Positions 9,239 through 40,159 are shown, numbered from the stretch's first letter. The stretch: DNA of 64,000 nucleotides from an uncultured Actinomycetes bacterium (GCA_903860915.1 CAIOSJ010000008.1:36573-100572), one strand, 5' to 3'. A program made the numbers and translations. Notes: generated by a model from the letters alone, not told the origin.

Positions 9239-10161
9239 ACGGCCACGAGGGTGCGTCCACGCAGTTCAGATGGTCGCGCCACGCCCATCTGACCGTGGAG
9301 GGCCGAGGCAATCTCGAGCGCCCCGAGCGCGCTGTCTCGCGGGACGAGTATCCATGAATTATTGGGGGAAGAGGCGATCACCAGTCCTTGAATGCGCGCG
9401 GCGCGCGCGGCCGCACCCACGGCCTCGGCGGTGACCAGACCCTCAACGCGTATCACCGGACACTCGCGTGGCGTGCGAGCGACCCCGGCGATGTCACGCA
9501 TCATGCGCAGTGAGTCGCGTCCGACGCGAACCGTTGAGCCGGCCACGTCGTCCCAGGTAACCCCAACGGGCTCGACCACGAGGCCAATTTCGTGGGCGAC
9601 GTAGAGCATTTCGGCGTCAAAAGCGAAGCCGTCGATGAGACCGTAGAGCGCGAGAACTCTGGCCGCCGGTAAACGAAAAGCCTTGCATCCGCACTGCGTG
9701 TCGCGCAGGGTGGTGGGAATGCGCGCGCGGACGTAGGCGTTAAAGGCCCATCCCGCTACGGACCGTAGAACCGAGTTGTAGTGGATGCTTCCGGTGAGTG
9801 AGCGCGATCCCGCAGCCAGGTCACAGTGTTCGAGAGCGGTGTTGAGCGCGGGCAACTGACGAGGGTGAATGGCCATGTCGGCGTCGCAGGTAAAAACGTG
9901 GTCGCCACTGGCGGCGGCGATACCGAGGCGAATGGCCGCTCCCTTGCCGTGATTGGACTCGCGGCGAATCACCATGGAGTGGGGGAGATCGCGCAGAATC
10001 TGAGCCGCTACGACGCCGGTGCCGTCAGAAGATCCGTCGTCGATGAGAATGACTTCGCAGTCATCGCGACCTAATAAGTCAAGCCCAACCTTGAGTCGTT
10101 CGCTGCTATCGCCGAGGCGTTCGGCTTCGTTGTGCGCCGGAATAATGATGGAGTATTTCAC
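9235..10161 (-). CDS. GT2 polyprenol/dolichyl-phosphate sugar synthase-like glycosyltransferase
   Basis: SIIIPAHNE, DDGSSDGT, NHGKGAAIRLG, DADM, DTQCGCKAFR, GFAFDAEML (ALG5/DPM1/Ppm1-type motifs), plus a short extra C-terminal segment. Confidence 0.85.
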   Translation of the reverse strand: MKYSIIIPAHNEAERLGDSSERLKVGLDLLGRDDCEVILIDDGSSDGTGVVAAQILRDLPHSMVIRRESNHGKGAAIRLGIAAASGDHVFTCDADMAIHPRQLPALNTALEHCDLAAGSRSLTGSIHYNSVLRSVAGWAFNAYVRARIPTTLRDTQCGCKAFRLPAARVLALYGLIDGFAFDAEMLYVAHEIGLVVEPVGVTWDDVAGSTVRVGRDSLRMMRDIAGVARTPRECPVIRVEGLVTAEAVGAAARAARIQGLVIASSPNNSWILVPRDSALGALEIASALHGQMGVARPSELRGRTLVAV

Positions 10162-10170
10162 GCAGTGGCC

Positions 10171-11343
10171 CTAGGGTCGCGCCGCGCCGTAGAGGCCAAA
10201 GGTGAAAATTGGGGTGACGCTAATGCTAGTTCCGGTGTGTGCGGCGGAGATGATCCAGTTCACCCCCGCACTCTGCCCGGCGTACATGACGACGTGGTCA
10301 ATCTGGTGGTCTCCGTCCAGGTTGTAATAAAACAAGAGATCTCCCGGCTGGAGGGCGGTGAGAGAGACCTTGCGCATGGCGTGATACTGGTCGGCGGCAG
10401 TTCGAGGGATGCGGTAGCCAGCGTAACTCCAGGCCCACTGCGTGAGTCCCGAGCAGTCAAAACCTCGCCCCACGGTCTCGCCGCCCCACACGTAGGGGAC
10501 GCCGATTTGGCTCTTCGCGGCGTTGAGAGCGGCCAGGCCAGATGCCGAGGTGGCGGGTGCCTGGTTGATGGCCCCCGGTCCCGTGATTTGCGATACGGCG
10601 AGCAGGATGCGGTTCGCTGCTGTAGTCCCACAGACGGCGTTGACGACCTGCACCGCCCCATTGACGCAGGCCACTTTGTGTTGTTTGGCACAACTAATGG
10701 CCACCGACATTTCGTAGGAGTAGACCTGGCTTTGATACTGGCGCTTGAGGCTGGTGAGGAGTCGATTGGTCTGAACTTCGTTGGCGGCGTTCTGCGCGAG
10801 AACACTGCGAATGTTCGATGCCGTTCGCGCGGCGTCGGCGCGCTGAACTGCCTCGAGGGCAAGGGTGCTCTGCAGGGACCGCTCCTGGGCCTGGTAGGAC
10901 TGTTGGAGGCCGAGCAGATTGCCGAGCACTTGGTTTTCGTACAGCGTCCGCGCGTCGGATCTCGAGACATCCTGCTTCAGCACGGCCAGAATCTGACCGT
11001 CGGCTGCGCCGTAGACGTAGGAGAACACGACCGCCCGAGAGAGGGATGAAGTTGTGGCGTTGATCTGAGTTTGGGTCGTGGCGGCTCGACCGCGGAGACC
11101 AGCCAGGACTCCGTCAATGCCGGCCAGGGCACTCGTTGCCTTGTTGTACTGCTCGGCTAAAACTTCGCTCTGGCGCTGTTCTGCGGCCAACTGGCTGGTA
11201 AGGCTTGCGATGGAGGCTCGAATATCCCCGGTGCTGGTCGCGCGGGCCCCACTCAGGGGAAGGAGGGAACTCAGCAGTGTCACGAGGCCGAGGGTGCCGG
11301 CGAGACTTCGCCGCCGGATGCTCGCGTGATACATCCCTACCAT
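10171..11343 (-). CDS. Secreted NlpC/P60 peptidoglycan endopeptidase with N-terminal coiled coil
   Basis: Signal peptide; long coiled coil; QIGVPYVWGG, GFDCSGLTQWAW, LQPGDLLFY, DHVVMYAG (Cys/His catalytic residues). Confidence 0.92.
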   Translation of the reverse strand: MVGMYHASIRRRSLAGTLGLVTLLSSLLPLSGARATSTGDIRASIASLTSQLAAEQRQSEVLAEQYNKATSALAGIDGVLAGLRGRAATTQTQINATTSSLSRAVVFSYVYGAADGQILAVLKQDVSRSDARTLYENQVLGNLLGLQQSYQAQERSLQSTLALEAVQRADAARTASNIRSVLAQNAANEVQTNRLLTSLKRQYQSQVYSYEMSVAISCAKQHKVACVNGAVQVVNAVCGTTAANRILLAVSQITGPGAINQAPATSASGLAALNAAKSQIGVPYVWGGETVGRGFDCSGLTQWAWSYAGYRIPRTAADQYHAMRKVSLTALQPGDLLFYYNLDGDHQIDHVVMYAGQSAGVNWIISAAHTGTSISVTPIFTFGLYGAARP

Positions 11344-28978: not shown

Positions 28979-31278
28979 TGAAGATGCCGCGCTGGACCCC
29001 CCAATCTTGGGCGAATTTCTTCGCCGTGGCGGCCGTGGTCTACGTAGTGCTGTGGTCGGTGCACCCAAATTTGCTCTTCTCCGGCTCGACGGTTACCGGT
29101 GGTGATACCGGCGCCCACGTGGCTACGGCCCGCTTCCTACGTGATCATTTGAGCACCGGTCTTACAAGTTGGTATCCGGGCTGGTTCGCCGGTACTCCGC
29201 TCTATACCTATTACTTTGTTCTACCTGACCTTCTGGCTGCGGTCGCGAGCTACGTCACTGGTTTCGCGGTTGCTTTCAAGGTGGCGACCATCTTGGGCTC
29301 GGTGCTCATGCCCCTATGCGCCTTCGTGATGGCGCGACTCTTTCGCGCCCGTGATCCCATACCCGCGATGTGCGCGCTCGCAACACTGCCCTTTCTTTTC
29401 GACAGCTCATTTACTATTGATGGCGGAAATCTCTTCTCCACCCTCGCCGGAGAGTACGCGTTCTCACTTTCGTTGGCCTTGAGCCTGCTCGTGATTGGCC
29501 TCGTGGCGAGGGGTCTGCGAACAGGTTGTGGAGTCTGGCTGAGTGGTGTCGCCCTCGCGCTCACCCTCTCTTCGCACGTTTTGCCGATGATGTTCGCCCT
29601 CGTCATGCTGCTGCTGCTCTGGTTTATGGAAGTGCTGAACGCCACCGGGTCCACGGACGCGACGGCCCCCGCGCGACGGCGCGGCGATATTCGACGGGCT
29701 AGCTCGTTTCTGTTGCGCGCCAGTGCCCTGGGCGCGGGATTATCGGCTTGGTGGTGGTTGCCCTTTGTTACTAGTCAGACAATGACCAACCCCATGGGCT
29801 ACAACAATGTTCCCGTGGGTACGATGCACGAAGTCTTTACCGCCCTCGGATGGTTTAACGCTTCGGGTGGTGCCGGCGGCGACCGCTGGGTCATCCTACT
29901 GACCGGGGTGGCACTTCTCGCTTCGATTTTCTGGCGAGATCGGCTGGGCATCTTGCTCACTATGGGGGCGGTGTGCTCGCTGGTCATCTTCGTCATCGAC
30001 CCCCAGGGTGAAATTTTCAACGAGCGACTCGTACCGTTCTGGTATCTCACCACGCACCTCGCCGTCGGTTGGTTGGTCGGCGCAATCGTTCTTAGAATTC
30101 CTCGACGACTCGTGCCGGACGATAAGGCGCCGGTTGAGCCATTGCTCGAGTACCGAGAAGGTCGGCGCATCGTGCGGTCGATATACCTGGGCATTATTTT
30201 CTTCGTCGGGGTAGTAGTAGCTCCGCAGCTCGGCCCCATCGCAACGGCTCTACACCTCCACCCGGGTGCCAACGAAGTGACGGGGTGGTCTCAGTGGAAC
30301 TATTCGGGATACGAGGCCAAGACCGCTTGGCCCGAGTACCACCAGATCATGATCGAAATGTCGCGAGTGGGCCAGAGCCACGGCTGCGGCCGAGCCATGT
30401 GGGAGTACTCCTCGGACCAGAGCAGGTTCGGTACACCCATGGGGCTCATGCTGTTGCCCTACTGGACGAACAACTGTATTGATTCGATGGAGGGTCTTCT
30501 CTTTGAATCCTCGGCGACGACGCCGTACCACTTTTTAGATCAGGCGGAATTGAGCGCTAGCCCCAGCAATCCTCAGACGGGTCTGCCCTACGGAAACTTT
30601 GACGACGCTCTCGGTATCCAGCATCTTCAGATGTTGGGGGTGAAGTACTACCTGGCCTTTTCTTCCGAAGCGGTGAGTGCGGCTAAGGCGAACAAATCAC
30701 TTCGTGACATTACGCCACCTCGGCCCACGACGAGCCCCGCTTCAGCGTGGCGAATTTACGAAATATTGTCGTCGCCACTGGTCGAAGGGGTTCGGCTCAG
30801 TCCGCTGGTGAATCCCCACCTGGCTAGTCGCAGTGCCTGGCTCGCAGCCAACACGCAGTGGTGGCTGCGTAACTCGAATCAGGACCAGATGCTGGCCAGC
30901 AGTGGACCGGCGGAGTGGCCTCGTGTGGGTCAGATTGCCAGAAGCTATCCGAGGGTTACGGTGTCGAACGTCACGACGTCGGAGTCGAAAATTAGTTTTT
31001 CGGTCGACAAGATTGGCGTTCCCATACTCGTTAAGGTCTCGTACTTTCCCCGCTGGAACGCCTCGGGGGCCAGCGGTCCCTGGCGAGTCTCGCCCAACCT
31101 CATGGTCGTAGTGCCACAGACGCGCCACGTCTCCTTGACGTACGGCACGACCACGGCGATGTACCTAGGACAGGGTCTCACCCTGCTCACGATTCTTCTC
31201 GGACTGCGCAACGCCTACCTGAGGCGTCGCTGGCGACGACCCCGTGATTTTTACAGTGTGAGTTCTGAGCGAATTTGA
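28978..31278 (+). CDS. Multi-TM membrane protein, 6-pyruvoyl-tetrahydropterin synthase-related/YfhO-like (probable GT-C fold)
   Basis: TGGDTGAHV, WYPGWFAGTPLYTYY in the first outer loop; about 12 TMs; C-terminal soluble domain (KVSYFPRW) and final TM. Confidence 0.72.
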   Translation: MKMPRWTPQSWANFFAVAAVVYVVLWSVHPNLLFSGSTVTGGDTGAHVATARFLRDHLSTGLTSWYPGWFAGTPLYTYYFVLPDLLAAVASYVTGFAVAFKVATILGSVLMPLCAFVMARLFRARDPIPAMCALATLPFLFDSSFTIDGGNLFSTLAGEYAFSLSLALSLLVIGLVARGLRTGCGVWLSGVALALTLSSHVLPMMFALVMLLLLWFMEVLNATGSTDATAPARRRGDIRRASSFLLRASALGAGLSAWWWLPFVTSQTMTNPMGYNNVPVGTMHEVFTALGWFNASGGAGGDRWVILLTGVALLASIFWRDRLGILLTMGAVCSLVIFVIDPQGEIFNERLVPFWYLTTHLAVGWLVGAIVLRIPRRLVPDDKAPVEPLLEYREGRRIVRSIYLGIIFFVGVVVAPQLGPIATALHLHPGANEVTGWSQWNYSGYEAKTAWPEYHQIMIEMSRVGQSHGCGRAMWEYSSDQSRFGTPMGLMLLPYWTNNCIDSMEGLLFESSATTPYHFLDQAELSASPSNPQTGLPYGNFDDALGIQHLQMLGVKYYLAFSSEAVSAAKANKSLRDITPPRPTTSPASAWRIYEILSSPLVEGVRLSPLVNPHLASRSAWLAANTQWWLRNSNQDQMLASSGPAEWPRVGQIARSYPRVTVSNVTTSESKISFSVDKIGVPILVKVSYFPRWNASGASGPWRVSPNLMVVVPQTRHVSLTYGTTTAMYLGQGLTLLTILLGLRNAYLRRRWRRPRDFYSVSSERI

Positions 31279-31778
31279 AAGAGTAATTCGGTGGTAGTCG
31301 CACCGACTGTGGAAATGGTGACGTCAGGATTTTCTGGTTCTTCGTAGGGGTCGCTCACGCCAGTCATATGACTCGTGGCACCGGAACGTGCCGTGGCGTA
31401 GAGAGCCTTAGCGTCCCGTGATTCGCAGACGTCAAGGGGCGTTGCCACGTAGACCTCGAAAAACCTAAGACCATCACTGTGGTGCGCGCTACGAACGCCG
31501 CGCCGCGCCTCAGCTCTCGGAGAAATCAAGGACACGACGGCAACGCAGCCCTGCGTATTAAGGAGTTGGGCGATCGCTCCGGCCCGCCGAACACTCTCAT
31601 CGCGGTCGCTCGCTGAGTAGCCCAAATCGGCCGACAAGTGGCGGCGCAGGGCGTCACCATCTAGCAGGATGGCGAGCCGCCCCTCGGCGCGTAGTTCTTC
31701 CACGAGGGCCGCTGCGGTTGTTGTCTTTCCTGCGCCGGAGAGACCGGTAAACCACACCGTGAGGCCTTGAGAACTCAT
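31251..31778 (-). CDS. cysC: Adenylyl-sulfate (APS) kinase
   Basis: VWFTGLSGAGKTT, LDGDALR, DLGYS..DRDE, SLISP, EVYVATPLDVCESRDAKALY, TGVSDPYEEP. Confidence 0.95.
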   Translation of the reverse strand: MSSQGLTVWFTGLSGAGKTTTAAALVEELRAEGRLAILLDGDALRRHLSADLGYSASDRDESVRRAGAIAQLLNTQGCVAVVSLISPRAEARRGVRSAHHSDGLRFFEVYVATPLDVCESRDAKALYATARSGATSHMTGVSDPYEEPENPDVTISTVGATTTELLFQIRSELTL

Positions 31779-31854: not shown

Positions 31855-33210
31855 GTGAATACTCGCGACGTGTTTAAGGCCTACGACATTCGAGGTACCT
31901 ACCCTGATCAGTTGAACGAGCAACTCCTGCGCGCCATCGGTTCGGCCTTCGCCACCTTCGCCGCCGTTCCCCACATTGTCATTGCTCGCGATATGCGTCC
32001 TTCGGGCGTCACCCTCGCTACCGCTTTTGCTGAAGGGGCTCGGGCGGTGGGCGTCGCGGTGACTGATTTAGGGCTCGCGTCCACGGATTTTTTGTACTTC
32101 GCCGCTGGCCATCTCGACATGCCGGGCGCCATGTTCACGGCTTCGCATAATCCGGCGCAGTACAACGGGATTAAGTTGTGCTTGTCGGGCGCGCGTCCAG
32201 TGGGCGTCGATACTGGACTCTCAGAAATTGAACGCCTGACTCAGCATTTTTACGAAGTACCCGCCTCCGGACCGCTGGCAGATTTCGATGAGCTGAATTT
32301 ACTCACCGAGTGGGTGGACCACGTTCGTTCCTTCGTTGACGTCACATCTCTGCGGCCGTTGCGCGTCGTGGCGGACACCGCCAATGGAATGGGTGGCTTC
32401 GTAGCCCCGTTGGTTTTTGACGGCCTCGGCTTGGACCTAGAGATTCTCTATCCGGAACTCGACGGCACCTTTCCCAATCACCCCGCCGACCCCATCCAGC
32501 CGGAAAATTTGCGCGACTTGCAACAGCGCGTGTTGGAAACGGCAGCCGATGTGGGCTTAGCCTTCGACGGGGACGCTGATCGAGTCTTTTTAATAAACGA
32601 AAAAGCGGAGCCCGTTTCCGGGTCGACCACCACGGCCATGGTGGCCGCCGCCATGCTGCGCCGTCACCCCGGGGCGACAATTCTTCACAATCTCATTTGC
32701 TCTAAGGCCGTCCCTGAGGTGATCGCCGAAGGTGGGGGTACCGCGGTTCGCACCCGGGTGGGGCATAGCTACATCAAGCAGTTGATGGCAGAGACGGGAG
32801 CAGTCTTTGGCGGTGAGCACTCGGGGCACTACTACTTTCGAGATAATTACCGAGCCGATTCGGGCATTATTACCGCCCTGGTTGTTTTGGAGCTACTCAG
32901 CGATTCGGGAGGCACCCTTTCCGAACTCGCCGCACCCTTCGAGCGCTATCGCGCGTCGGGCGAAATAAATACTGAGGTTCCCGACCCCAGCGCTTCGGTG
33001 AACGCGGTAGCTGCCCTCTTGACATCCCGGGGGGTAAGCGTTGACCGCCTCGATGGCTTGACGGCCACCTACGACACCTGGTGGTTCAATTTGCGCCCCT
33101 CCAATACCGAGCCCCTCCTACGACTGAATGTCGAAGCGTCAACGGACGAGGAACTCGCCCGACGTATCGAAGAAATTTCTCGGCTCATTGCCTCAACGAA
33201 AGGAAAATAA
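31855..33210 (+). CDS. manB: Phosphomannomutase/phosphoglucomutase
   Basis: FKAYDIRG, FTASHNP, DGTFPNHPADP, FDGDADR, GGEHSGHYYF, RPSNTEPLLRLNVE. Confidence 0.95.
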   Translation: MNTRDVFKAYDIRGTYPDQLNEQLLRAIGSAFATFAAVPHIVIARDMRPSGVTLATAFAEGARAVGVAVTDLGLASTDFLYFAAGHLDMPGAMFTASHNPAQYNGIKLCLSGARPVGVDTGLSEIERLTQHFYEVPASGPLADFDELNLLTEWVDHVRSFVDVTSLRPLRVVADTANGMGGFVAPLVFDGLGLDLEILYPELDGTFPNHPADPIQPENLRDLQQRVLETAADVGLAFDGDADRVFLINEKAEPVSGSTTTAMVAAAMLRRHPGATILHNLICSKAVPEVIAEGGGTAVRTRVGHSYIKQLMAETGAVFGGEHSGHYYFRDNYRADSGIITALVVLELLSDSGGTLSELAAPFERYRASGEINTEVPDPSASVNAVAALLTSRGVSVDRLDGLTATYDTWWFNLRPSNTEPLLRLNVEASTDEELARRIEEISRLIASTKGK

Positions 33211-33211
33211 C

Positions 33212-33415
33212 GTGCCCCTGGACAGTTTTTTACTGAGTGTGATCGTTGACCCCATTGACCACGGTCCCTTGACCTACGTCGAAGTCGATTCGATCTTGTA
33301 CAACCCGCGTCGGCACGTGATCTACGTGGTGCGTGACTCCATTCCCGTTCTCCTGCCCGGAGAGGCGCGTGACGCTTCGGCCGAGGAAATTGAACGATAC
33401 GGCGCTCTGGCTTGA
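33212..33415 (+). CDS. Trm112/UPF0434 family protein
   Basis: LLSVIVDPIDHGPL...YVVRDSIPVLLPGEAR; RBS AAGGA; conserved position after manB. Confidence 0.85.
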   Translation: MPLDSFLLSVIVDPIDHGPLTYVEVDSILYNPRRHVIYVVRDSIPVLLPGEARDASAEEIERYGALA

Positions 33416-33460
33416 TTGTGAGTTTGGCTAGCGGCGACGCGGGACAAGCAACGCGATTGG

Positions 33461-33482
33461 CTCTGTCATTAGGATGTTAGAG
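33461..33482 (+). promoter_or_regulatory. Imperfect inverted repeat around a -10 box (TAGGAT), candidate TetR operator
   Basis: CTCTgtCAT-TAGG-ATGttAGAG (7 of 9 pairs); TANNNT at 33470-33475; RBS GAGGAG before ATG 33499. Confidence 0.4.
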
Positions 33483-33498
33483 AGGAAAATGAGGAGCT

Positions 33499-34236
33499 AT
33501 GAGCCGTCGTATCGCCCTGCTTAACGATGCACGACACTACGTCGGCCCCGAACTGGCCCGAGCCTTCGCTCGCCGTAACCATGATCTAGTGATTGGCGAG
33601 GCATCGGATGAACTCGTTGGTGAGTTAGAGAACCTGGGCGCCCGCGTCGTTAATGTACAGGGTGTGAGCAACCTCACTGAGCCGCAGGCTGCACCACTGC
33701 TGGTCGAATCAGCGCTGGCGGAATTTGGACGCTTCGATGCCGCCGTCGCCTTTTCTGGTCAGATCATTCCCGGTCGTTTTCTCGATTCCAGTATCGAGGA
33801 CTTGAGGTCTATTGTTTCGGGCTGCCTCGAAGGCCCCTACCATTTTCTCAAGGCGGTTGCGCCACCACTCGTGGCCCAGGGTGCGGGCCAGATAGTTCTC
33901 ATCACCAGTGCGGCGGGTGCGCGACCGACCAAGGGAGCGGCGCTCTATTCTTCGGTACGAGCGGCCGCGTCGATGATGGCGCGAAATTTAGCGGCAGATA
34001 TCGCACCGCACGGCGTGCAGGTTAACGCCATCGGGACCAACTTCATGGATTTCCCAGAATTTCATGCGGCTTCGGGTACTAATGATCCCGTCCGCCGTGC
34101 GGCTCTTGAGGCCCGTGTGCCGCTGCGACGAATGGGTGGCCTGGAAGAATTCGCCAACTTCTCTATGGCCTTTTTGGATGGCAGCAGTGGCTTCACGACT
34201 GGTCAGTTTGTGGCCTACGCCGGCGGCTGGGCGTAG
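33499..34236 (+). CDS. hheG: Halohydrin dehalogenase, G-type (HheG-like) SDR
   Basis: No TGxxxGxG; N9-X4-Y14-X-G16 instead; triad S137-X12-Y150-X3-R154 (Arg, not Lys); GVQVNAIGTNFMDFP, VPLRRMG, LDGSSGFTTGQF, GGW as recalled for HheG. Confidence 0.85.
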   Translation: MSRRIALLNDARHYVGPELARAFARRNHDLVIGEASDELVGELENLGARVVNVQGVSNLTEPQAAPLLVESALAEFGRFDAAVAFSGQIIPGRFLDSSIEDLRSIVSGCLEGPYHFLKAVAPPLVAQGAGQIVLITSAAGARPTKGAALYSSVRAAASMMARNLAADIAPHGVQVNAIGTNFMDFPEFHAASGTNDPVRRAALEARVPLRRMGGLEEFANFSMAFLDGSSGFTTGQFVAYAGGWA

Positions 34237-34238
34237 TC

Positions 34239-34835
34239 GTGAAGGAAGATGCAGTCCTGAGCAAAACCGATGGTCGCGTCCATCGCCGTATCGAGAACCG
34301 TGACCGCGTACTGATGTCTGCGGTACGCCTCTTTTCACAAGGCGTGTGGCCGACGCACGAAGAGGTATCGACCGCTAGCGGCCTTTCCTTGCGTTCAATT
34401 TACCGTTATTTTGAAACGACCGACCAGCTCATCCTTGTGGCCATTCACCGCAGTTACGCTGTTTTATCGTCTTTCAATCAGATCCCCAATTTAGGACGAG
34501 GAGACCTCGATTCACGAATTGTCGCTTTCGTAGACCTTCGCCTGGACGTGTACAAGCGTTTTGGGACAACCTATCGAATGGTGCGACAGATGCAAGACCG
34601 CCACACGGCCTTACCAGGCGAACTACTTAAGGGTCGCCTACAACATCGGCTCCAGACGCAGGCTCACTTCGCAGAAGAAATCAAGGCCGGTGTGGATACA
34701 ACTGCGCTCGACATTCTCGTCACACCGGAGAGTTTGGACTACTTCACTATGACGCTGGGGCTCACACTCGATGAAACGAAGATCACCATTGTCAAGACTT
34801 TTCGACAAATACTACGGATACCGGAGAAATTGTGA
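34239..34835 (+). CDS. TetR/AcrR family transcriptional regulator
   Basis: DGRVHRRIENRDRVL..A..LF, PTHEEVSTASGLSLRSIYRYF helix-turn-helix. Confidence 0.88.
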   Translation: MKEDAVLSKTDGRVHRRIENRDRVLMSAVRLFSQGVWPTHEEVSTASGLSLRSIYRYFETTDQLILVAIHRSYAVLSSFNQIPNLGRGDLDSRIVAFVDLRLDVYKRFGTTYRMVRQMQDRHTALPGELLKGRLQHRLQTQAHFAEEIKAGVDTTALDILVTPESLDYFTMTLGLTLDETKITIVKTFRQILRIPEKL

Positions 34836-35644
34836 GCCCTCGTTACGAACAGCCCAGTCCCCGTTACGGGGCCATTGACTACGACTACGCCAGTACGATG
34901 GCGTCCCTCGATCCGGCAGATGACGGTCCGGTCTGGATGGTCAATCTGATGAAGTACCGCGAGCGAGCTGAGTACAGCGATGGGCGCAAAACTAACTTCA
35001 CCGGCGCCGAAGCTGATGACCTCTACGCCCCGCTCGAAATTCTCGCGGAACTCGGTGCCGAAGTTGCTTTTTTCGGGACGGTCCAGTCACAGATTGTGGG
35101 TGAGTCCCCCCAGTGGGACCGGGTGGGCGTGGTCAAGTACCCCACGCGTGCATCCTTTATCGCAATGCAGACGCGACCCGACTTTATGGCGAAGCACCAC
35201 CATAAGGAAGCCGGTATGGAATTCACCATCATCGTCGGTAGCACGCCGCCGCCAACAACGACCACGCTCGGGGAACTTCCTTCGTGGACCGAGGTGGAGT
35301 TTCCCGCCGTGCGACCAGATTTCCCGGTCGTCGTGCTCCACTTGTCGAGTACGCCACTGCAAGTTTTTCGTCCCGAGGACGTCAATGCGCGCGTGGCTCT
35401 CCGTCACGGCCTACGACCCGGTGGAACGTGGCCCGTCGAGGGCACCATCATTGGCGACGATCGTCGTTGGAGCGAAGTGCGTTGGGACGCCTATCCTTCA
35501 CGGGCGGCCTTTGACGCCGTGGCCTACGACCCCGAACGATTGGCCGCCGTGGCGACGAGCGAACCATCTGAAGGGCGCGATGAATACGTACTCGTCGTGC
35601 GGCCCTTTATTGACACCATTACTAAATCACTCCACAAGAACTAG
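34832..35644 (+). CDS. Tandem DUF1330-like (dimeric alpha/beta barrel) protein
   Basis: DGPVWMVNLMKYRERAEY, WDRVGVVKYPTRASF; second degenerate copy WSEVRWDAYPSRAAF; GTGA coupling to TetR. Confidence 0.7.
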   Translation: MSPRYEQPSPRYGAIDYDYASTMASLDPADDGPVWMVNLMKYRERAEYSDGRKTNFTGAEADDLYAPLEILAELGAEVAFFGTVQSQIVGESPQWDRVGVVKYPTRASFIAMQTRPDFMAKHHHKEAGMEFTIIVGSTPPPTTTTLGELPSWTEVEFPAVRPDFPVVVLHLSSTPLQVFRPEDVNARVALRHGLRPGGTWPVEGTIIGDDRRWSEVRWDAYPSRAAFDAVAYDPERLAAVATSEPSEGRDEYVLVVRPFIDTITKSLHKN

Positions 35645-35664
35645 AGAAAGAAGTAGGGCGGAAT

Positions 35665-37920
35665 ATGAAACAGTACGAAAAGTTTGAGGGAAAAATCGGT
35701 CGCACCTTTGCGGAATCGACCCCCTGGTGGCCAACACCCGTGCACCCCGGACCGGACGCCCCCAACGTCGTCGTTATTCTCATTGACGACCTGGGCTTCT
35801 CCCACTTCAATTGCTTCGGCTCCGACCTCGACACTCCGAACATCGATCGCTTGGCGGCCGGCGGACTGCGGTACTCCAATTTTCACGTAACCCCGTTGTG
35901 TTCGCCCACGCGTGCGGCCCTCTTGACGGGTCGCAACCACCACTCGGTGGGCATGCGCGGAATCTCGAACTGGAATAGTGGCTTCCCGCACATGCGCGGA
36001 GTGGTGTCGAACCACGCCGCCACTATGGGCGAAGTCTTCAAAGAAGCGGGCTACACCACCTTCGCCATCGGCAAGTGGCACTTGACCCAAATGGAAAATG
36101 CTTCGTCGGCCGGCCCCTTCGATCACTGGCCCCTGTCGCGAGGATTCGACCGCTACTACGGCTTCCTCGACGGTGAGACGGACCAGTTCGCTCCCGACCT
36201 CGTGTACGACAACCACCGCGTGGACCCGTCGAAGACGGCGGAGGAGGGCTATCACCTCAGTGAAGACCTCGTCGATCACGCGATTGGCTTTATTCACGAT
36301 ACGAAGTCGATCCGCCCCGACCGCCCCTTCTTTACCTACTTCGCATTTGGCGCCATGCACGCGCCGCACCAGGCTCCTCGGGCCTACCTCGACAAGCACA
36401 AGGGACGTTACGACGAAGGCTGGGACGTTGCGCGTGAGAAGTGGTTCGCCAAGCAAAAGACCCTTGGGCTGGTGACAGCGGACACTCAATTAGCCCCACG
36501 TAATTTTGGCGTGGAGGCGTGGGACGACCTGCCGGAAGACCAACGAAAGTTGGCCTGCCGTCTGCAGGAAGCCTTCGCCGCTTTCCTAGAGCACACGGAC
36601 GCTCAAATTGGTCGGCTCGTAGACGAGTTGGAAGCCCTGGGCGAGCTCGACAACACGATCATCATGCTGATGAGTGACAACGGAGCGAGTCAGGAGGGCG
36701 GGCCCTTTGGCATCTTGCACGAAATGAAGTTCTTCAATTTCGTTTTGGAAAGTCCGGACGAAGCGGTGGAGCACCTCGATGAAATCGGTGGACCCCACAG
36801 CCACTCGAACTACCCCTGGGGTTGGGCCCAGGCCGGAAATACCCCCTTTAAGTGGTACAAGCAAAATACCCACGAGGGCGGGGTCCACGTCCCGCTGATT
36901 GTGCACTGGCCAAAGGGCATCTCCGACCAGGGCGGGATCCGTCGGCAGTGGGCCTACGTCACAGACATCTCGGCCACCGTCTACGACGTCGCAGGGGTCA
37001 GCGTGCCCGATACGGTGAAGGGCTTTGAGCAGATGCCCATGGCCGGAGTATCGCTGAAGTCGACCTTCGCCGCGGACCGCGACGGGACTCTTCCGCGTAC
37101 TCAGTACTTCGAAATGGGCGGGCACCGCGCCATCTACCGTGATGGTTGGAAGGCCGTGACGCGTCACACGCCGACCGTGGCCTTTGATAATGACAAGTGG
37201 GAGCTGTACCACGTCGAAGAAGATTTGTCAGAGTTCAACGATCTCGCCAGTGCTGAGCCCGAACGCTTGGCCGAAATGGTTGCACTCTGGTGGGCCGAGG
37301 CCGAAGAGTACGGAGTGTTGCCGCTGGACGACCGAGGTTTAGAACTCTTCGGGGCACGATTCCGTGATAATTCTCCCCACCCCCTCAGTCGTCACTACAC
37401 CTACCTGCCGCCCGTGAGTGCCATCCCGGCCCAAGTAGCGGCCGGTGTGGGCGGACGCAGTTGGGACCTTGACGCCTCGATTACTCGGGTGGCCGGGCAG
37501 AACGGTGTGATGTGCGCCTTCGGTACGGAGAATGCTGGACTCGGTTTCTTTCTAAAGAATGATCACCTGTACTTCGACTACAACGTTTTTGGTGAGCACC
37601 ACATGATCGTTTCGGATCGGGTGGTCCCGGAGGGTAAGTCCAGCGTCGGCGTGCGTTTTCGCCGTCTCGATGAGGGCGGATCAGCCAGCATCGTAATCAA
37701 TGGTGAGGACGCTGGAAGCATGGAGTTTCCCTTCGTAATGAGAATTATTTCCAGCATTGGCATGTCGGTAGGAGAAGACAAGGGGTCGCCGGTGTCCTTG
37801 GAGTATCACGGCCCCTTCCCCTTCGAAGGCACACTTCACCAACTCGATATTCAACTAGTGTCGCCTCGCGATGCGGCGGCGGCGGAGGCTGATGCTCGAG
37901 AAGGAATGGCGCGCCAGTAG
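35665..37920 (+). CDS. Cys-type arylsulfatase (AtsA-like) with C-terminal lectin/LamG-like domain
   Basis: PNVVVILIDDLG, CSPTRAALLTGRNHH (CxPxR FGly motif), IGKWHL, MSDNGAS, HEGGVHVP, WELYH..EDLSE; no signal peptide seen. Confidence 0.95.
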   Translation: MKQYEKFEGKIGRTFAESTPWWPTPVHPGPDAPNVVVILIDDLGFSHFNCFGSDLDTPNIDRLAAGGLRYSNFHVTPLCSPTRAALLTGRNHHSVGMRGISNWNSGFPHMRGVVSNHAATMGEVFKEAGYTTFAIGKWHLTQMENASSAGPFDHWPLSRGFDRYYGFLDGETDQFAPDLVYDNHRVDPSKTAEEGYHLSEDLVDHAIGFIHDTKSIRPDRPFFTYFAFGAMHAPHQAPRAYLDKHKGRYDEGWDVAREKWFAKQKTLGLVTADTQLAPRNFGVEAWDDLPEDQRKLACRLQEAFAAFLEHTDAQIGRLVDELEALGELDNTIIMLMSDNGASQEGGPFGILHEMKFFNFVLESPDEAVEHLDEIGGPHSHSNYPWGWAQAGNTPFKWYKQNTHEGGVHVPLIVHWPKGISDQGGIRRQWAYVTDISATVYDVAGVSVPDTVKGFEQMPMAGVSLKSTFAADRDGTLPRTQYFEMGGHRAIYRDGWKAVTRHTPTVAFDNDKWELYHVEEDLSEFNDLASAEPERLAEMVALWWAEAEEYGVLPLDDRGLELFGARFRDNSPHPLSRHYTYLPPVSAIPAQVAAGVGGRSWDLDASITRVAGQNGVMCAFGTENAGLGFFLKNDHLYFDYNVFGEHHMIVSDRVVPEGKSSVGVRFRRLDEGGSASIVINGEDAGSMEFPFVMRIISSIGMSVGEDKGSPVSLEYHGPFPFEGTLHQLDIQLVSPRDAAAAEADAREGMARQ

Positions 37921-39009
37921 TTACAGCTGGGTCACTACGTAGCCCGTGGCCGGATCAATAGAACCTTCCAGCACGGCGCGATACGCGGCCATGCTGGCCT
38001 CGTCATCGGTCACGGGGAGAATGACGAGCCAATTCTTAACCCACTCAACGAAGTAATCCCACGCTACGGAAATCTTGTCTTCGAAGCCGTCGCGACCCCA
38101 GTCGGTGCGGCGCTTCGCTATTTGGACGGGGGCGAAGAGGAATTCCGGCTTAGGCCCGGCCAGATCGCCGCTGATCTCGTCGTGGTTGTCCCAGTGAGTG
38201 TCACCGACGATCATGGAATACTTCAAATTATTCCCGAAGTGGGCGTGGAGGGTAAAGGTGACGTCGCGGCGACCGGCGACGTCAACGTAGACCGACGGCG
38301 TAAGAGGTAATTCCCCAACCTGGTCGTAGGTGAGTACTTCGTCGTAGCAAGCTAGGGATTGGCAGAACTCGAGATTCCCGGGCGAGGTCAGTCCCACGAT
38401 GCGCAGGTCTGATCCGTGCGTCTGACGGAGTCCAACGACGCTTCCGAGGGAGGTTTTGGCGGAGGCGCTGGAAACGATAATCGTCGTTGCTCCGAAGAAG
38501 TCGTGGTCGACGAGGAAGTCGTTCATCACAAACGAGGTGGTGAAGAGGGGTCGCAATAAGAGTATGTAGGGTTCATTCTCGACGCTGTACTGCTTGTCAG
38601 TGCTGGTGTAGGCGTAACGGTTGTAGACGGTGGGGAGCTTCTGTCGATGGGGGGCCATGTCATTGAAACCGCTGTCATCAAATCGGCCCGGCTCCACGAT
38701 TAATTCGGAACCGAAGGGAAAGTAGCCAAAGACGCGAGTGCCCACGGCTAGGGCTGAGTTCTTGCTTTCCACCACGTCGGCGAAGCCCCAGACGGGCATG
38801 ACGCCCCATTCGCCCCGGTCGGCTTCGATGCGGGTGGGGAAGAATTCCCAGTACTGCATCATGTCGCCAAAAACGGCGTAGGTGATGTTGTTGGCGGTGA
38901 TGCCGTAGGTCGAGATGGCGAAGCGAGCTTGCCCGACTTCGAGGTCGCGCGCCACTGGTTCGCTACAGCGAATGGTGTGGAGATCGGTTCGATTGATTTG
39001 CATTTCCAT
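37921..39009 (-). CDS. DUF2855 family protein (MDR-like fold)
   Basis: YGITANNITYAVFGD...YWEFFP, PVWGFADVVES, GYFP, LRPLFTTSF, SSASAKT, GLTSPGN. Confidence 0.82.
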   Translation of the reverse strand: MEMQINRTDLHTIRCSEPVARDLEVGQARFAISTYGITANNITYAVFGDMMQYWEFFPTRIEADRGEWGVMPVWGFADVVESKNSALAVGTRVFGYFPFGSELIVEPGRFDDSGFNDMAPHRQKLPTVYNRYAYTSTDKQYSVENEPYILLLRPLFTTSFVMNDFLVDHDFFGATTIIVSSASAKTSLGSVVGLRQTHGSDLRIVGLTSPGNLEFCQSLACYDEVLTYDQVGELPLTPSVYVDVAGRRDVTFTLHAHFGNNLKYSMIVGDTHWDNHDEISGDLAGPKPEFLFAPVQIAKRRTDWGRDGFEDKISVAWDYFVEWVKNWLVILPVTDDEASMAAYRAVLEGSIDPATGYVVTQL

Positions 39010-39216
39010 GAGTGGACGCCCTTCGCGATAGATGCTGCGGATTTACACTAACAACCTTGACACCCCGTAATGGGAAACACTGCTGTACCGCAACCACCTA
39101 CCCACCACGACCTCGAGGCCCTGAGCGCCTCGAGCCGTCTCTAATCCCCATGTCACAACGAATTGCGATGATGAATTGATTCTGGGGTGACTACGAATAG
39201 TGACTCAGGTCTGATG

Positions 39217-39246
39217 TTGACAGATGTAATACAAATGTATTACAAT
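39217..39246 (+). promoter_or_regulatory. Sigma-A type promoter with overlapping perfect palindromic operator
   Basis: TTGACA (39217-22), 18 nt, TACAAT (39241-46), ATG 5 nt later; TGTAATAC-AAAT-GTATTACA inverted repeat at 39225-39244. Confidence 0.85.
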
Positions 39247-39251
39247 AAAGT

Positions 39252-39473
39252 ATGGCCCCTCCATCAAAACCGAAAGTAGTCCAGCCGTCGCAGATGTTCG
39301 CGGCGACCTCGAGAAGTAAATCGGCACCATCGAGCCAGCTCGTGAGTGTTCGACTCCCCGTTGAATTACTTGAACGTTTGGCCGATGTTGGCAACGTTCA
39401 AGGTCTCGCTATGAGCGACACCATCCGTCTCGTTCTCGAACGGGGCTTATCCGCCAAAAAGAAAGGGAAGTAA
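39252..39473 (+). CDS. Ribbon-helix-helix (CopG/MetJ/Arc) DNA-binding protein
   Basis: SQLVSVRLP (beta strand), VELLERLADVG (helix A), MSDTIRLVLERGL (helix B); basic tail. Confidence 0.82.
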   Translation: MAPPSKPKVVQPSQMFAATSRSKSAPSSQLVSVRLPVELLERLADVGNVQGLAMSDTIRLVLERGLSAKKKGK

Positions 39474-39475
39474 TC

Positions 39476-40159
39476 ATGACCACTTCAACCACCCGCAACA
39501 CCCACATATATTTTGTGCTTGACCGATCGGGCTCGATGCAGACCATCGTCAGCGACGTCATTGGGGGCTTCAACAGTTACATCGCCCAACAGGCTCTGGA
39601 GGGCTCCGACGCACTGATTACCTTCATTCAGTTCGACTCTCAGGACAGCCATCACGTCGTTTTTTCGGCACTTCCCGTAACCGAGGTGCGAGAATTGACT
39701 AGTAGTTCCTTTCGGCCTCGTGGCGCTACGCCTCTGTACGACGCGATGGGCCACGCCATCGCTTCAGCGACGATCCGTGCCGAGCAGGTTAAGAACCAGA
39801 CGACGGGCGAAGACATCGTCTTTGTCACCTTCACGGATGGGGAAGAAAATGACTCCATCGAATACGACCGTAAGAAGATTTTCACGCTCATCAAGAAGCG
39901 GGAGAAGTTGGGTTGGACCTTTGTGTATCTCGGCGCCAACCAGGACGCCTACGGGGAAGCTGACCTTGCCGGTTTCGACAAGGCGAACGTCTCGAATTTT
40001 GTGGCCGACGCCGCGGGTACGCAAACAGCATTTGATTCGCTGAGTAAGGCTACGTCCATGCGCCGTGCTCGCCAGACGAGCGGCCAGAAGTTCTCCTCCA
40101 TGGACTTCTTCGAAGGCGACAAGGCCGCTGACCTCGACGCCGAACAACGAGCGAAGTAG
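39476..40159 (+). CDS. Stand-alone von Willebrand factor A (vWA) domain protein
   Basis: Intact MIDAS: FVLDRSGSM, RGATPLYDA, FTDGEEN; GWTFVYLGANQDA; starts 2 nt after the RHH stop. Confidence 0.92.
   Translation: MTTSTTRNTHIYFVLDRSGSMQTIVSDVIGGFNSYIAQQALEGSDALITFIQFDSQDSHHVVFSALPVTEVRELTSSSFRPRGATPLYDAMGHAIASATIRAEQVKNQTTGEDIVFVTFTDGEENDSIEYDRKKIFTLIKKREKLGWTFVYLGANQDAYGEADLAGFDKANVSNFVADAAGTQTAFDSLSKATSMRRARQTSGQKFSSMDFFEGDKAADLDAEQRAK

Follow-up and report, generated by a model that had tools for sequence, protein, structure and literature searches.

Halohydrin dehalogenases (HHDHs) are widely used as biocatalysts, and the conversion of halohydrins to epoxides is the established mechanism of the family. 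The known HHDH pathways deal with man-made chemicals; in the routes involving HheA, HheB, and HheC, the substrates are small xenobiotic halohydrins and the lyase is paired with an epoxide hydrolase. In the literature consulted, neither the natural substrates of G-type enzymes nor the reasons for which hundreds of uncultured Acidimicrobiia species retain G-type HHDHs were found to be discussed. Here, an HHDH gene of this type is described from a 64,000-nucleotide (nt) stretch of DNA (hereafter the window; CAIOSJ010000008.1:36573-100572 of GCA_903860915.1), whose host is a freshwater-type actinobacterium of the class Acidimicrobiia with a genome of 1.67 Mb at 93% completeness. The gene is followed on the same strand by genes for a TetR-family regulator, a protein with two ferredoxin-like domains (p270), and a sulfatase (SulfA). 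Genes for such HHDHs adjoin sulfatase genes repeatedly across the class, and in genomes that lack HHDH the SulfA ortholog is often accompanied by a haloalkane dehalogenase (HLD). This sulfatase and HLD context of HHDH is real, recurrent, and, as far as could be found, unpublished, and a catabolic pathway is hypothesized from it below. The locus may well be one local form of an Acidimicrobiia gene set that has been reshuffled and serves the catabolism of aliphatic halogenated sulfate esters.

The window HHDH has the fold of a short-chain dehydrogenase/reductase (SDR; PF13561, 6.7e-31; PF00106, 8.8e-23). As the initial annotation had observed, the glycine motif that binds nicotinamide adenine dinucleotide (NAD) is absent, the classical TGxxxGxG being replaced by N9-D-A-R-H-Y14-V-G16, and the triad S137, Y150, and R154 is present, with Arg in place of the SDR Lys and all three residues invariant across 25 homologs. 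Set against the HHDH motif T-X4-[F/Y]-X-G, which lines the anion pocket, motif 1 of the window enzyme keeps the aromatic residue and the Gly, both invariant, and both nucleotide-binding glycines are gone; its first position, which is variable within the clade, is Asn and not Thr. The best PDB matches are 7wkq (1.2e-96) and AbHheG (8h8y, 1.1e-95; 8hqp, ~1e-95), and the HheG structures 5o30 (7e-55) and 6i9u (~1e-55) rank next. HheA, HheB, HheC, HheD-type, and NAD-dependent SDR structures match at ~1e-21 or weaker, and the bit scores range from 190 to 326 for G-type structures and from 64 to 78 for the HheA/HheB/HheC/HheD-type structures. The PDB matches, together with the tree described below, bear out the earlier assignment to the G-type, and the protein does not cluster with NAD-dependent SDRs.

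Within the G-type, the window HHDH aligns with the Ilumatobacter-type HheG homolog of locus L119 at 42% identity, with a 12-residue gap after strand 2, and with 7WKQ and AbHheG over the full length, without gaps, at 60-61% global identity. A flexible loop of ~15 residues (12-15) after strand 2 has been described as unique to HheG, HheG2, and HheG3 (PMC10099379). Since this loop is absent from the window HHDH, 7WKQ, and AbHheG, the window HHDH is filed in the short-loop AbHheG/7WKQ branch and not in HheG sensu stricto. In a maximum likelihood tree of 121 loci and two PDB sequences, it falls inside a clade of 117 rows (support 100/98) that holds both crystallized enzymes, with the Ilumatobacter-type sequences as the sister group. 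By its sequence, the window protein is a new member of the short-loop branch, and its identity to 7WKQ and AbHheG predicts dehalogenation or epoxide ring-opening activity. The HHDH family is large: at E<1e-30 it comprises more than 2,374 cluster representatives, and 542 species representatives were counted among GTDB genomes.

The surroundings of HHDH were surveyed in a first set of 80 loci around the closest homologs, searched with the window proteins, and in a class-wide sample of 401 evenly drawn Acidimicrobiia genomes, searched with HHDH and SulfA; 40 further HHDH loci without nearby SulfA were added from the latter, and 121 fetched loci were compared overall. Neighboring genes were found by tblastn with defined queries, greedy open reading frame (ORF) calls being noisy (shadow ORFs, high-GC loci). 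The linkage to a sulfatase, for which the initial annotation had proposed a survey of relatives, does recur: a sulfatase lies ≤4.5 kb from HHDH in 56 of the 121 loci. By cross-reading of the class-wide sample, the same holds for at least 28 of 74 HHDH-positive genomes, a count that takes in L092, L097, and L098, where the nearest sulfatase is a SulfC16b-like type of ~530 residues. In the subset of 47 loci flanked by at least 5 kb on each side, a SulfA ortholog (55-73% identity) lies within 7 kb in 30, and SulfB, a second sulfatase type of ~900 residues fused to a DJ-1/PfpI domain, in 5; the remaining 12 have none. The third, SulfC16b-like subfamily adjoins HHDH in 4 further loci.

At least 10 HHDH-sulfatase arrangements occur, and they are scattered across the HHDH tree, in many of its clades. 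Where the sulfatase has the same orientation as HHDH, it lies either downstream, TetR being present or not, or upstream with ends that overlap; otherwise it is convergent or divergent, the divergent genes being separated by 65-190 nt or by a gene for an NAD-dependent SDR or a lipoprotein. The spacing is often immediate or overlapping (+3, -34, 10, 46, and 64-82 nt). The HHDH of L068 (Acidimicrobiia bacterium Baikal-deep-G22, 10001-10732) has the same sequence as 7WKQ (residues 5-248 as printed); this locus, from a Lake Baikal bin, has SulfA, an NAD-dependent SDR, and a 424-residue protein, C10, upstream on the other strand. AbHheG is sister to the HHDH of L069, which has SulfA 71 nt upstream.

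How closely the sulfatase keeps to HHDH bears on the possibility that both are passengers of a genomic island, the sulfatase serving for sulfur scavenging, as PAS/AtsA does in Pseudomonas, and HHDH and HLD being unrelated accessory genes of a flexible region. This would agree with the patchy distribution of HHDH, which occurs in 74 of the 401 sampled genomes and 40 of 177 genera and, within the window's genus, in 3 of 13 other genomes, with the highly variable gene content around it, with the far greater abundance of SulfA-family genes (173 of 401 genomes), and with an adenylyl-sulfate (APS) kinase gene 1.7 kb upstream in the window. Sulfatases nevertheless fall off steeply with distance, numbering 27, 4, 7, 2, 1, and 3 in successive 1.5-kb bins outward from HHDH (69 loci with full 9-kb flanks), and adjacency by chance would be expected in a few percent of cases, because the window genome holds only 5 sulfatase genes in 1.67 Mb. 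Hitch-hiking is quite unlikely given this decay, the often immediate or overlapping adjacency that persists through many rearrangements, and the involvement of two mechanistically unrelated dehalogenase families.

The second of these families appears where HHDH is missing. In 14 of 20 HHDH-less genomes with a SulfA ortholog (L121-L140; e.g., L121:6085-9300), an HLD of subfamily I lies ≤1.5 kb from SulfA; four of the genomes belong to the window's genus, and in these the gap from SulfA to the HLD behind it is 13-38 nt. The HLD identity is supported by PDB entry 5esr (9e-105) and by NCBIfam NF002043 (389 bits, above the cut-off). HLD matches occur in 225 of the 401 genomes, mostly one each, and by cross-reading of this sample the SulfA-HLD pair is found within 2.5 kb in at least 30 genomes. 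Sulfatase, HLD, and HHDH occur together in five loci. The window genome has one HLD homolog (44% identity), alone on another contig. The strongest case for a shared substrate bearing both halogen and sulfate is made by the presence of two mechanistically unrelated dehalogenases at one sulfatase ortholog.

The SulfA-HLD pair also bears on a variant raised in the initial annotation, in which sulfate itself is the leaving group. On this reading, an HHDH-like enzyme would turn vicinal hydroxy-sulfates into epoxide and sulfate, with the sulfatase as a parallel or salvage route. Sulfate is a larger dianion, which, to our knowledge, no HHDH accepts, and a neighboring hydrolytic sulfatase would be redundant in such a scheme. 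All that speaks for the variant is the linkage itself and the known ability of the anion pocket of HHDHs to accept several small anions (PMC10099379). No literature was found that ties HHDH to sulfate esters or sulfatases, and the occurrence of the same sulfatase with HLD indicates that the partner enzyme releases halide, not sulfate. The variant is therefore highly improbable.

In the window, the HHDH and sulfatase genes belong to a larger string that varies among relatives. The apparent four-gene operon described initially is present, and its exact form is unique to the window genome. Of the neighbors expected to recur near HHDH, sulfatase and TetR do so, a TetR homolog lying ≤300 nt from HHDH in 20 of 121 loci, but the DUF1330-like gene p270 travels with the sulfatase and not with HHDH: it lies ≤5 kb from HHDH in 11 of 121 loci and stands divergently beside SulfA in 6 of the 20 HHDH-less loci. 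DUF2855, the gene that faces SulfA in the window, recurs beside HHDH or SulfA and is found ≤1 kb from HHDH in 7 of 121 loci. With arrowheads for orientation, the order is HHDH > TetR > DUF2855 < in the nearest relative (L081, same genus, HHDH 73% identical), HHDH > TetR > SulfA > DUF2855 < in L002 and L003, and SulfA > HHDH > DUF2855 < in L015. Because of these patterns and the p270-SulfA pairs, the window string has the appearance of an HHDH-TetR module fused to a p270-SulfA module, with DUF2855 as the boundary.

From the family identities, the packing of the genes, and the recurrence of sulfatase with dehalogenase, we infer substrates, step order, and regulation along the following lines. 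The TetR repressor would release the operon on binding the substrate or an intermediate. SulfA, judging from its family, would act as a cytoplasmic formylglycine sulfatase that hydrolyzes the sulfate ester to a free hydroxyl. Where this hydroxyl is vicinal to C-Cl or C-Br, the cofactor-free HHDH would deprotonate it via Ser137-Tyr150-Arg154, and the oxygen would displace the halide intramolecularly to give an epoxide. Genomes that also have HLD would use it to strip off isolated halogens by hydrolysis. The epoxide, or carbonyl or enone products derived from it, would then be handled by genome-specific accessory genes, which may be the DUF2855 reductase and p270 here and, elsewhere, a DinB/mycothiol-transferase-like protein, HLD, or, in the largest clade, an NAD-dependent SDR.

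Chlorosulfolipids are polychlorinated alkyl sulfates with mid-chain secondary sulfates flanked by chlorines. Those of chrysophytes and other microalgae are a candidate substrate class for this pathway, because the secondary sulfate flanked by chlorine, the preference of G-type enzymes for bulky substrates, and the habitat all fit. Sterically demanding internal epoxides are favored by G-type enzymes (PMC11536340). Chlorosulfolipids were first obtained from freshwater chrysophytes and have now been detected widely in seawater (PMC13413282), and many of the related bins are, by their record titles, apparently lake-derived. It is conceivable, though doubtful, that the loci represent a widespread and undescribed pathway of chlorosulfolipid degradation, in which the sulfatase would unmask mid-chain chlorohydrins as the native substrates of G-type HHDHs, and HLD, DUF2855, DUF1330-like, and DinB-like proteins would complete the route. 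The literature search found no description linking HHDH with a sulfatase, and, judging by titles and abstracts, it turned up no account of an HLD-sulfatase gene cluster.

Several findings weigh against a gene set for halogenated sulfate esters. The HHDH-sulfatase linkage is frequent and not universal, being present in ~40% of HHDH-positive genomes and absent from ~60%, and, since related genomes are not independent of one another, there are fewer independent events than counted cases. The Ilumatobacter HheG-type genes have no adjacent sulfatase, their neighbors being glycosyltransferases, a NUDIX protein, and GroEL, and Ilumatobacter-like genomes have the SulfA-HLD pair away from the HheG-type gene. 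The L081 locus of the nearest relative holds neither sulfatase nor p270, and no SulfA-family match was found in its genome at E<1e-180. Within the window cluster there is neither a transporter nor an epoxide hydrolase, and consensus scans for promoters and terminators yielded about as many hits in 32800-39500 as in shuffled sequence. The PAS-like core of SulfA is typed as an arylsulfatase, activity on alkyl sulfates being putative. As for its maturation, no formylglycine-generating enzyme (FGE; PF03781) was found in the 93%-complete genome, whose incompleteness leaves the absence unproven, and no anaerobic sulfatase maturase scored above the cut-off there (TIGR03942, 32 bits against a cut-off of 349).

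A further point against a halogenated substrate comes from biochemistry, as the characterized G-type enzymes barely dehalogenate those small β-chloroalcohols that have been tested and are known mainly for epoxide ring opening, cyclic epoxides being opened efficiently with many anions (PMC10099379). This favors an explanation in which HHDH detoxifies or converts epoxides, such as those arising when alkenes or lipids are oxidized, by opening them with a small anion (chloride, nitrite, or another), and shares with the sulfatase a common stress or detoxification regulon and no substrate. The DinB-fold gene, with weak similarity to mycothiol transferases, that follows HHDH in 15 of 121 loci would fit such electrophile detoxification, and many genomes have HHDH without a sulfatase. 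Left unexplained, however, are the recruitment of three sulfatase subfamilies beside HHDH and the pairing of SulfA with the hydrolytic HLD in HHDH-less genomes, both of which point to carbon-halogen cleavage as the shared theme; ring opening as the role of HHDH is accordingly judged unlikely, and the catabolism of halogenated sulfate esters is kept as the preferred reading.

The genes of the locus are listed in Table 1. The arrangement of four co-oriented genes first annotated, with gaps of 2, -4, and 20 nt, was recovered in full, all ORFs lying on the plus strand at the positions given. This spacing suggests that the four genes are co-transcribed. A Shine-Dalgarno sequence, GAGGAG, lies 3-9 nt 5′ of the HHDH ATG, and GGAG lies 7 nt ahead of the p270 start. 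An inverted repeat or operator candidate was sought 5′ of HHDH and none was found. The composition of the locus is ordinary (GC 0.57-0.59).

Table 1. Genes of the HHDH-sulfatase locus, with positions counted from the first nucleotide of the window.
Feature	Position	Strand	Length and remarks
HHDH	33499..34236	+	245 aa; ATG start
Probable TetR-family regulator, divergent in sequence	34239..34835	+	198 aa; GTG start 2 nt past HHDH stop
p270, tandem ferredoxin-like (dimeric alpha+beta barrel), DUF1330-like	34832..35644	+	270 aa; GTG start, GTGA overlap with TetR stop
SulfA, cytoplasmic type I (formylglycine) sulfatase	35665..37920	+	751 aa
DUF2855 protein	37921..39009	-	362 aa; convergent; stop abuts SulfA stop

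The sulfatase call made initially for SulfA is upheld by PF00884 (9.1e-65) and by the formylglycine motif C79-S-P-T-R83. SulfA has no signal peptide, which places it in the cytoplasm, and its residues 32-552 align over the whole 536-residue Pseudomonas aeruginosa arylsulfatase PAS (1hdh, 8e-85). The C-terminal domain of ~200 residues gave no match in Pfam or the PDB. An assignment as phosphonate-monoester hydrolase was rejected, the PehA model scoring far under the arylsulfatase models. In the largest clade, SulfA and HHDH are ~950 nt apart; an FGE was considered for this spacer, which turned out to hold an ordinary NAD-dependent SDR.

The regulator had been annotated as TetR, and this holds in so far as all 25 of its PDB matches (weak, E<1) are TetR-family proteins; it is probably a divergent member, the Pfam TetR_N domain appearing only at E=0.0019 and 18.4 bits, under the 24-bit gathering cut-off. 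For p270, described initially as a tandem DUF1330 protein, the two ferredoxin-like domains stand as a fold class, but membership of PF07045 does not. The protein gave no Pfam match, DUF1330 (PF07045) included, as a whole or in either half at E<=10, and no NCBIfam match; among the p270 homologs listed, about 10% carry a precomputed PF07045 match. The N-terminal half matches RPA0582, a structural-genomics protein (PDB 3dca/3hhl), at 6.8e-14. In an AlphaFold2 (AF2) model (predicted local distance difference test, pLDDT, 92), p270 forms two beta-alpha-beta-beta-alpha-beta (ferredoxin-like) domains, and each half superposes on RPA0582 (Foldseek 3hhl/3dca, TMt 0.80-0.83). On this model, p270 may be called DUF1330-like at best. 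A conserved block near the N terminus, RYGxIDxDY, speaks for the upstream GTG start (34832) and therefore for the 4-nt overlap with TetR. Kinship with chlorite dismutases and coproheme decarboxylases was considered and set aside, the two-domain similarity being weak (TM 0.35-0.46, root-mean-square deviation 8-10 Å) and not functional evidence. The second ferredoxin-like domain of p270 (window 35261-35644) is more diverged than in homologs, with a deletion of ~10 residues after the first strand and changes at near-invariant positions, e.g., F200 and F218 (consensus numbering).

The DUF2855 protein matches PF11017 at 1.8e-98 (331 bits). A PDB sequence search with it gave no match, and only the fold search did: its AF2 model (pLDDT 93) has a medium-chain dehydrogenase/reductase (MDR) fold, with PTGR1/LTB4 12-HD and plant and bacterial double-bond reductases as the closest Foldseek matches (E~1e-13, TM 0.56-0.66). 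The modeled fold makes it a putative NAD(P)-dependent reductase, nearest to alkenal/enone double-bond reductases.

Some further genes were observed around HHDH and SulfA. In one clade, a Cys-type sulfatase (CVPSR) of ~880-940 residues fused to DJ-1/PfpI lies directly upstream of HHDH and co-oriented with it (L004:3785-6610, with homologs in L001, L005-L008, L010, L013, and L014), and a sulfatase-DJ-1 fusion is also present in four of the HHDH-less SulfA loci. The 424-residue C10 protein, which has no Pfam match, adjoins SulfA in 26 loci (L019-L054 clade, ~3.2 kb upstream of HHDH), and the window genome carries a 46%-identical copy on contig C25:297941-299167. The DinB-fold gene (~190 residues; PF12867; NF047843 mycothiol transferase, weak at 2e-8) lies ≤150 nt downstream of HHDH in L001, L022, L048, L051, L058, L062, L065, L072, L088, L092, L103, L104, L107, L108, and L110; no homolog was found in the window genome at the thresholds used. 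The DinB-fold protein may be a thiol transferase for which the epoxide serves as substrate.

Upstream of the locus in the window, the APS kinase-like gene (31251-31778, minus strand, opposite to HHDH; P-loop GLSGAGKTT) adjoins a phosphomannomutase gene and is not conserved beside HHDH in the related loci searched. A Trm112-like ORF of 95 residues (33128-33415, plus strand; Pfam E=1.7e-4, just under the cut-off) shares 83 nt with the 3′ end of the phosphomannomutase gene and stops 83 nt ahead of the HHDH start. Among the records surveyed, the GenBank MAG records L010, L012, L034, and L075 (labeled 'Bifidobacterium breve') and L059 (Solirubrobacteraceae) hold typical Acidimicrobiia HHDH loci, and their labels look wrong.

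The recurrent sulfatase link, together with HLD at the same sulfatase locus, points to a concrete substrate class for G-type HHDHs, namely halogenated sulfate esters, and hints at microbes as a sink for natural organochlorine lipids, certain of these having been implicated in shellfish poisoning (PMC13413282). The loci also offer first functional contexts for DUF2855, tandem DUF1330-like proteins, and the sulfatase-DJ-1 fusion. For enzyme discovery, the short-loop HheG branch is large, and its variant motif 1 may escape strict motif mining.

Among described systems, the closest are 7WKQ and AbHheG (8H8Y/8HQP), both from Acidimicrobiia metagenome bins, which have in common with the window enzyme the triad, the short loop after strand 2, the C-terminal ...YAGGWA, and a SulfA ortholog upstream in the 7WKQ source locus (L068) and the AbHheG sister locus (L069). 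They differ in the first position of motif 1, which is Gly or Ser in 7WKQ and AbHheG, Asn in the window enzyme, and Thr in the mining motif, and in the orientation of the sulfatase, which is divergent in L068 and L069, whereas the window HHDH shares its orientation with TetR, p270, and the sulfatase and is translationally coupled to them. HheG, HheG2, and HheG3 from Ilumatobacter coccineus, I. nonamiensis, and relatives (5O30) are of the same family, subtype label, and triad as the window HHDH, but the flexible loop is theirs only and their genes are not beside any sulfatase. The P. aeruginosa arylsulfatase PAS/AtsA (1HDH) is, like SulfA, a cytoplasmic Cys-type (CxPxR) enzyme; SulfA differs by its extra C-terminal domain of ~200 residues and by its linkage to dehalogenases and not to sulfate-starvation genes. 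DccA (5ESR), 6F9O, and DmrA (4MJ3), all subfamily-I HLDs, match the SulfA partner gene of relatives at 1e-95 to 1e-105, and such an HLD is not in the window cluster. HheA, HheB, and HheC of Agrobacterium, Arthrobacter, and Corynebacterium, which act on epichlorohydrin and 1,3-dichloro-2-propanol, are likewise cofactor-free, SDR-derived lyases that convert vicinal halohydrins to epoxides, and they are only distantly similar to the window HHDH (E about 1e-17 to 1e-21). The partners of the window HHDH are TetR, DUF2855, a ferredoxin-like protein, and a sulfatase, in place of an epoxide hydrolase, and the setting is one of uncultured aquatic bacteria that are widespread.

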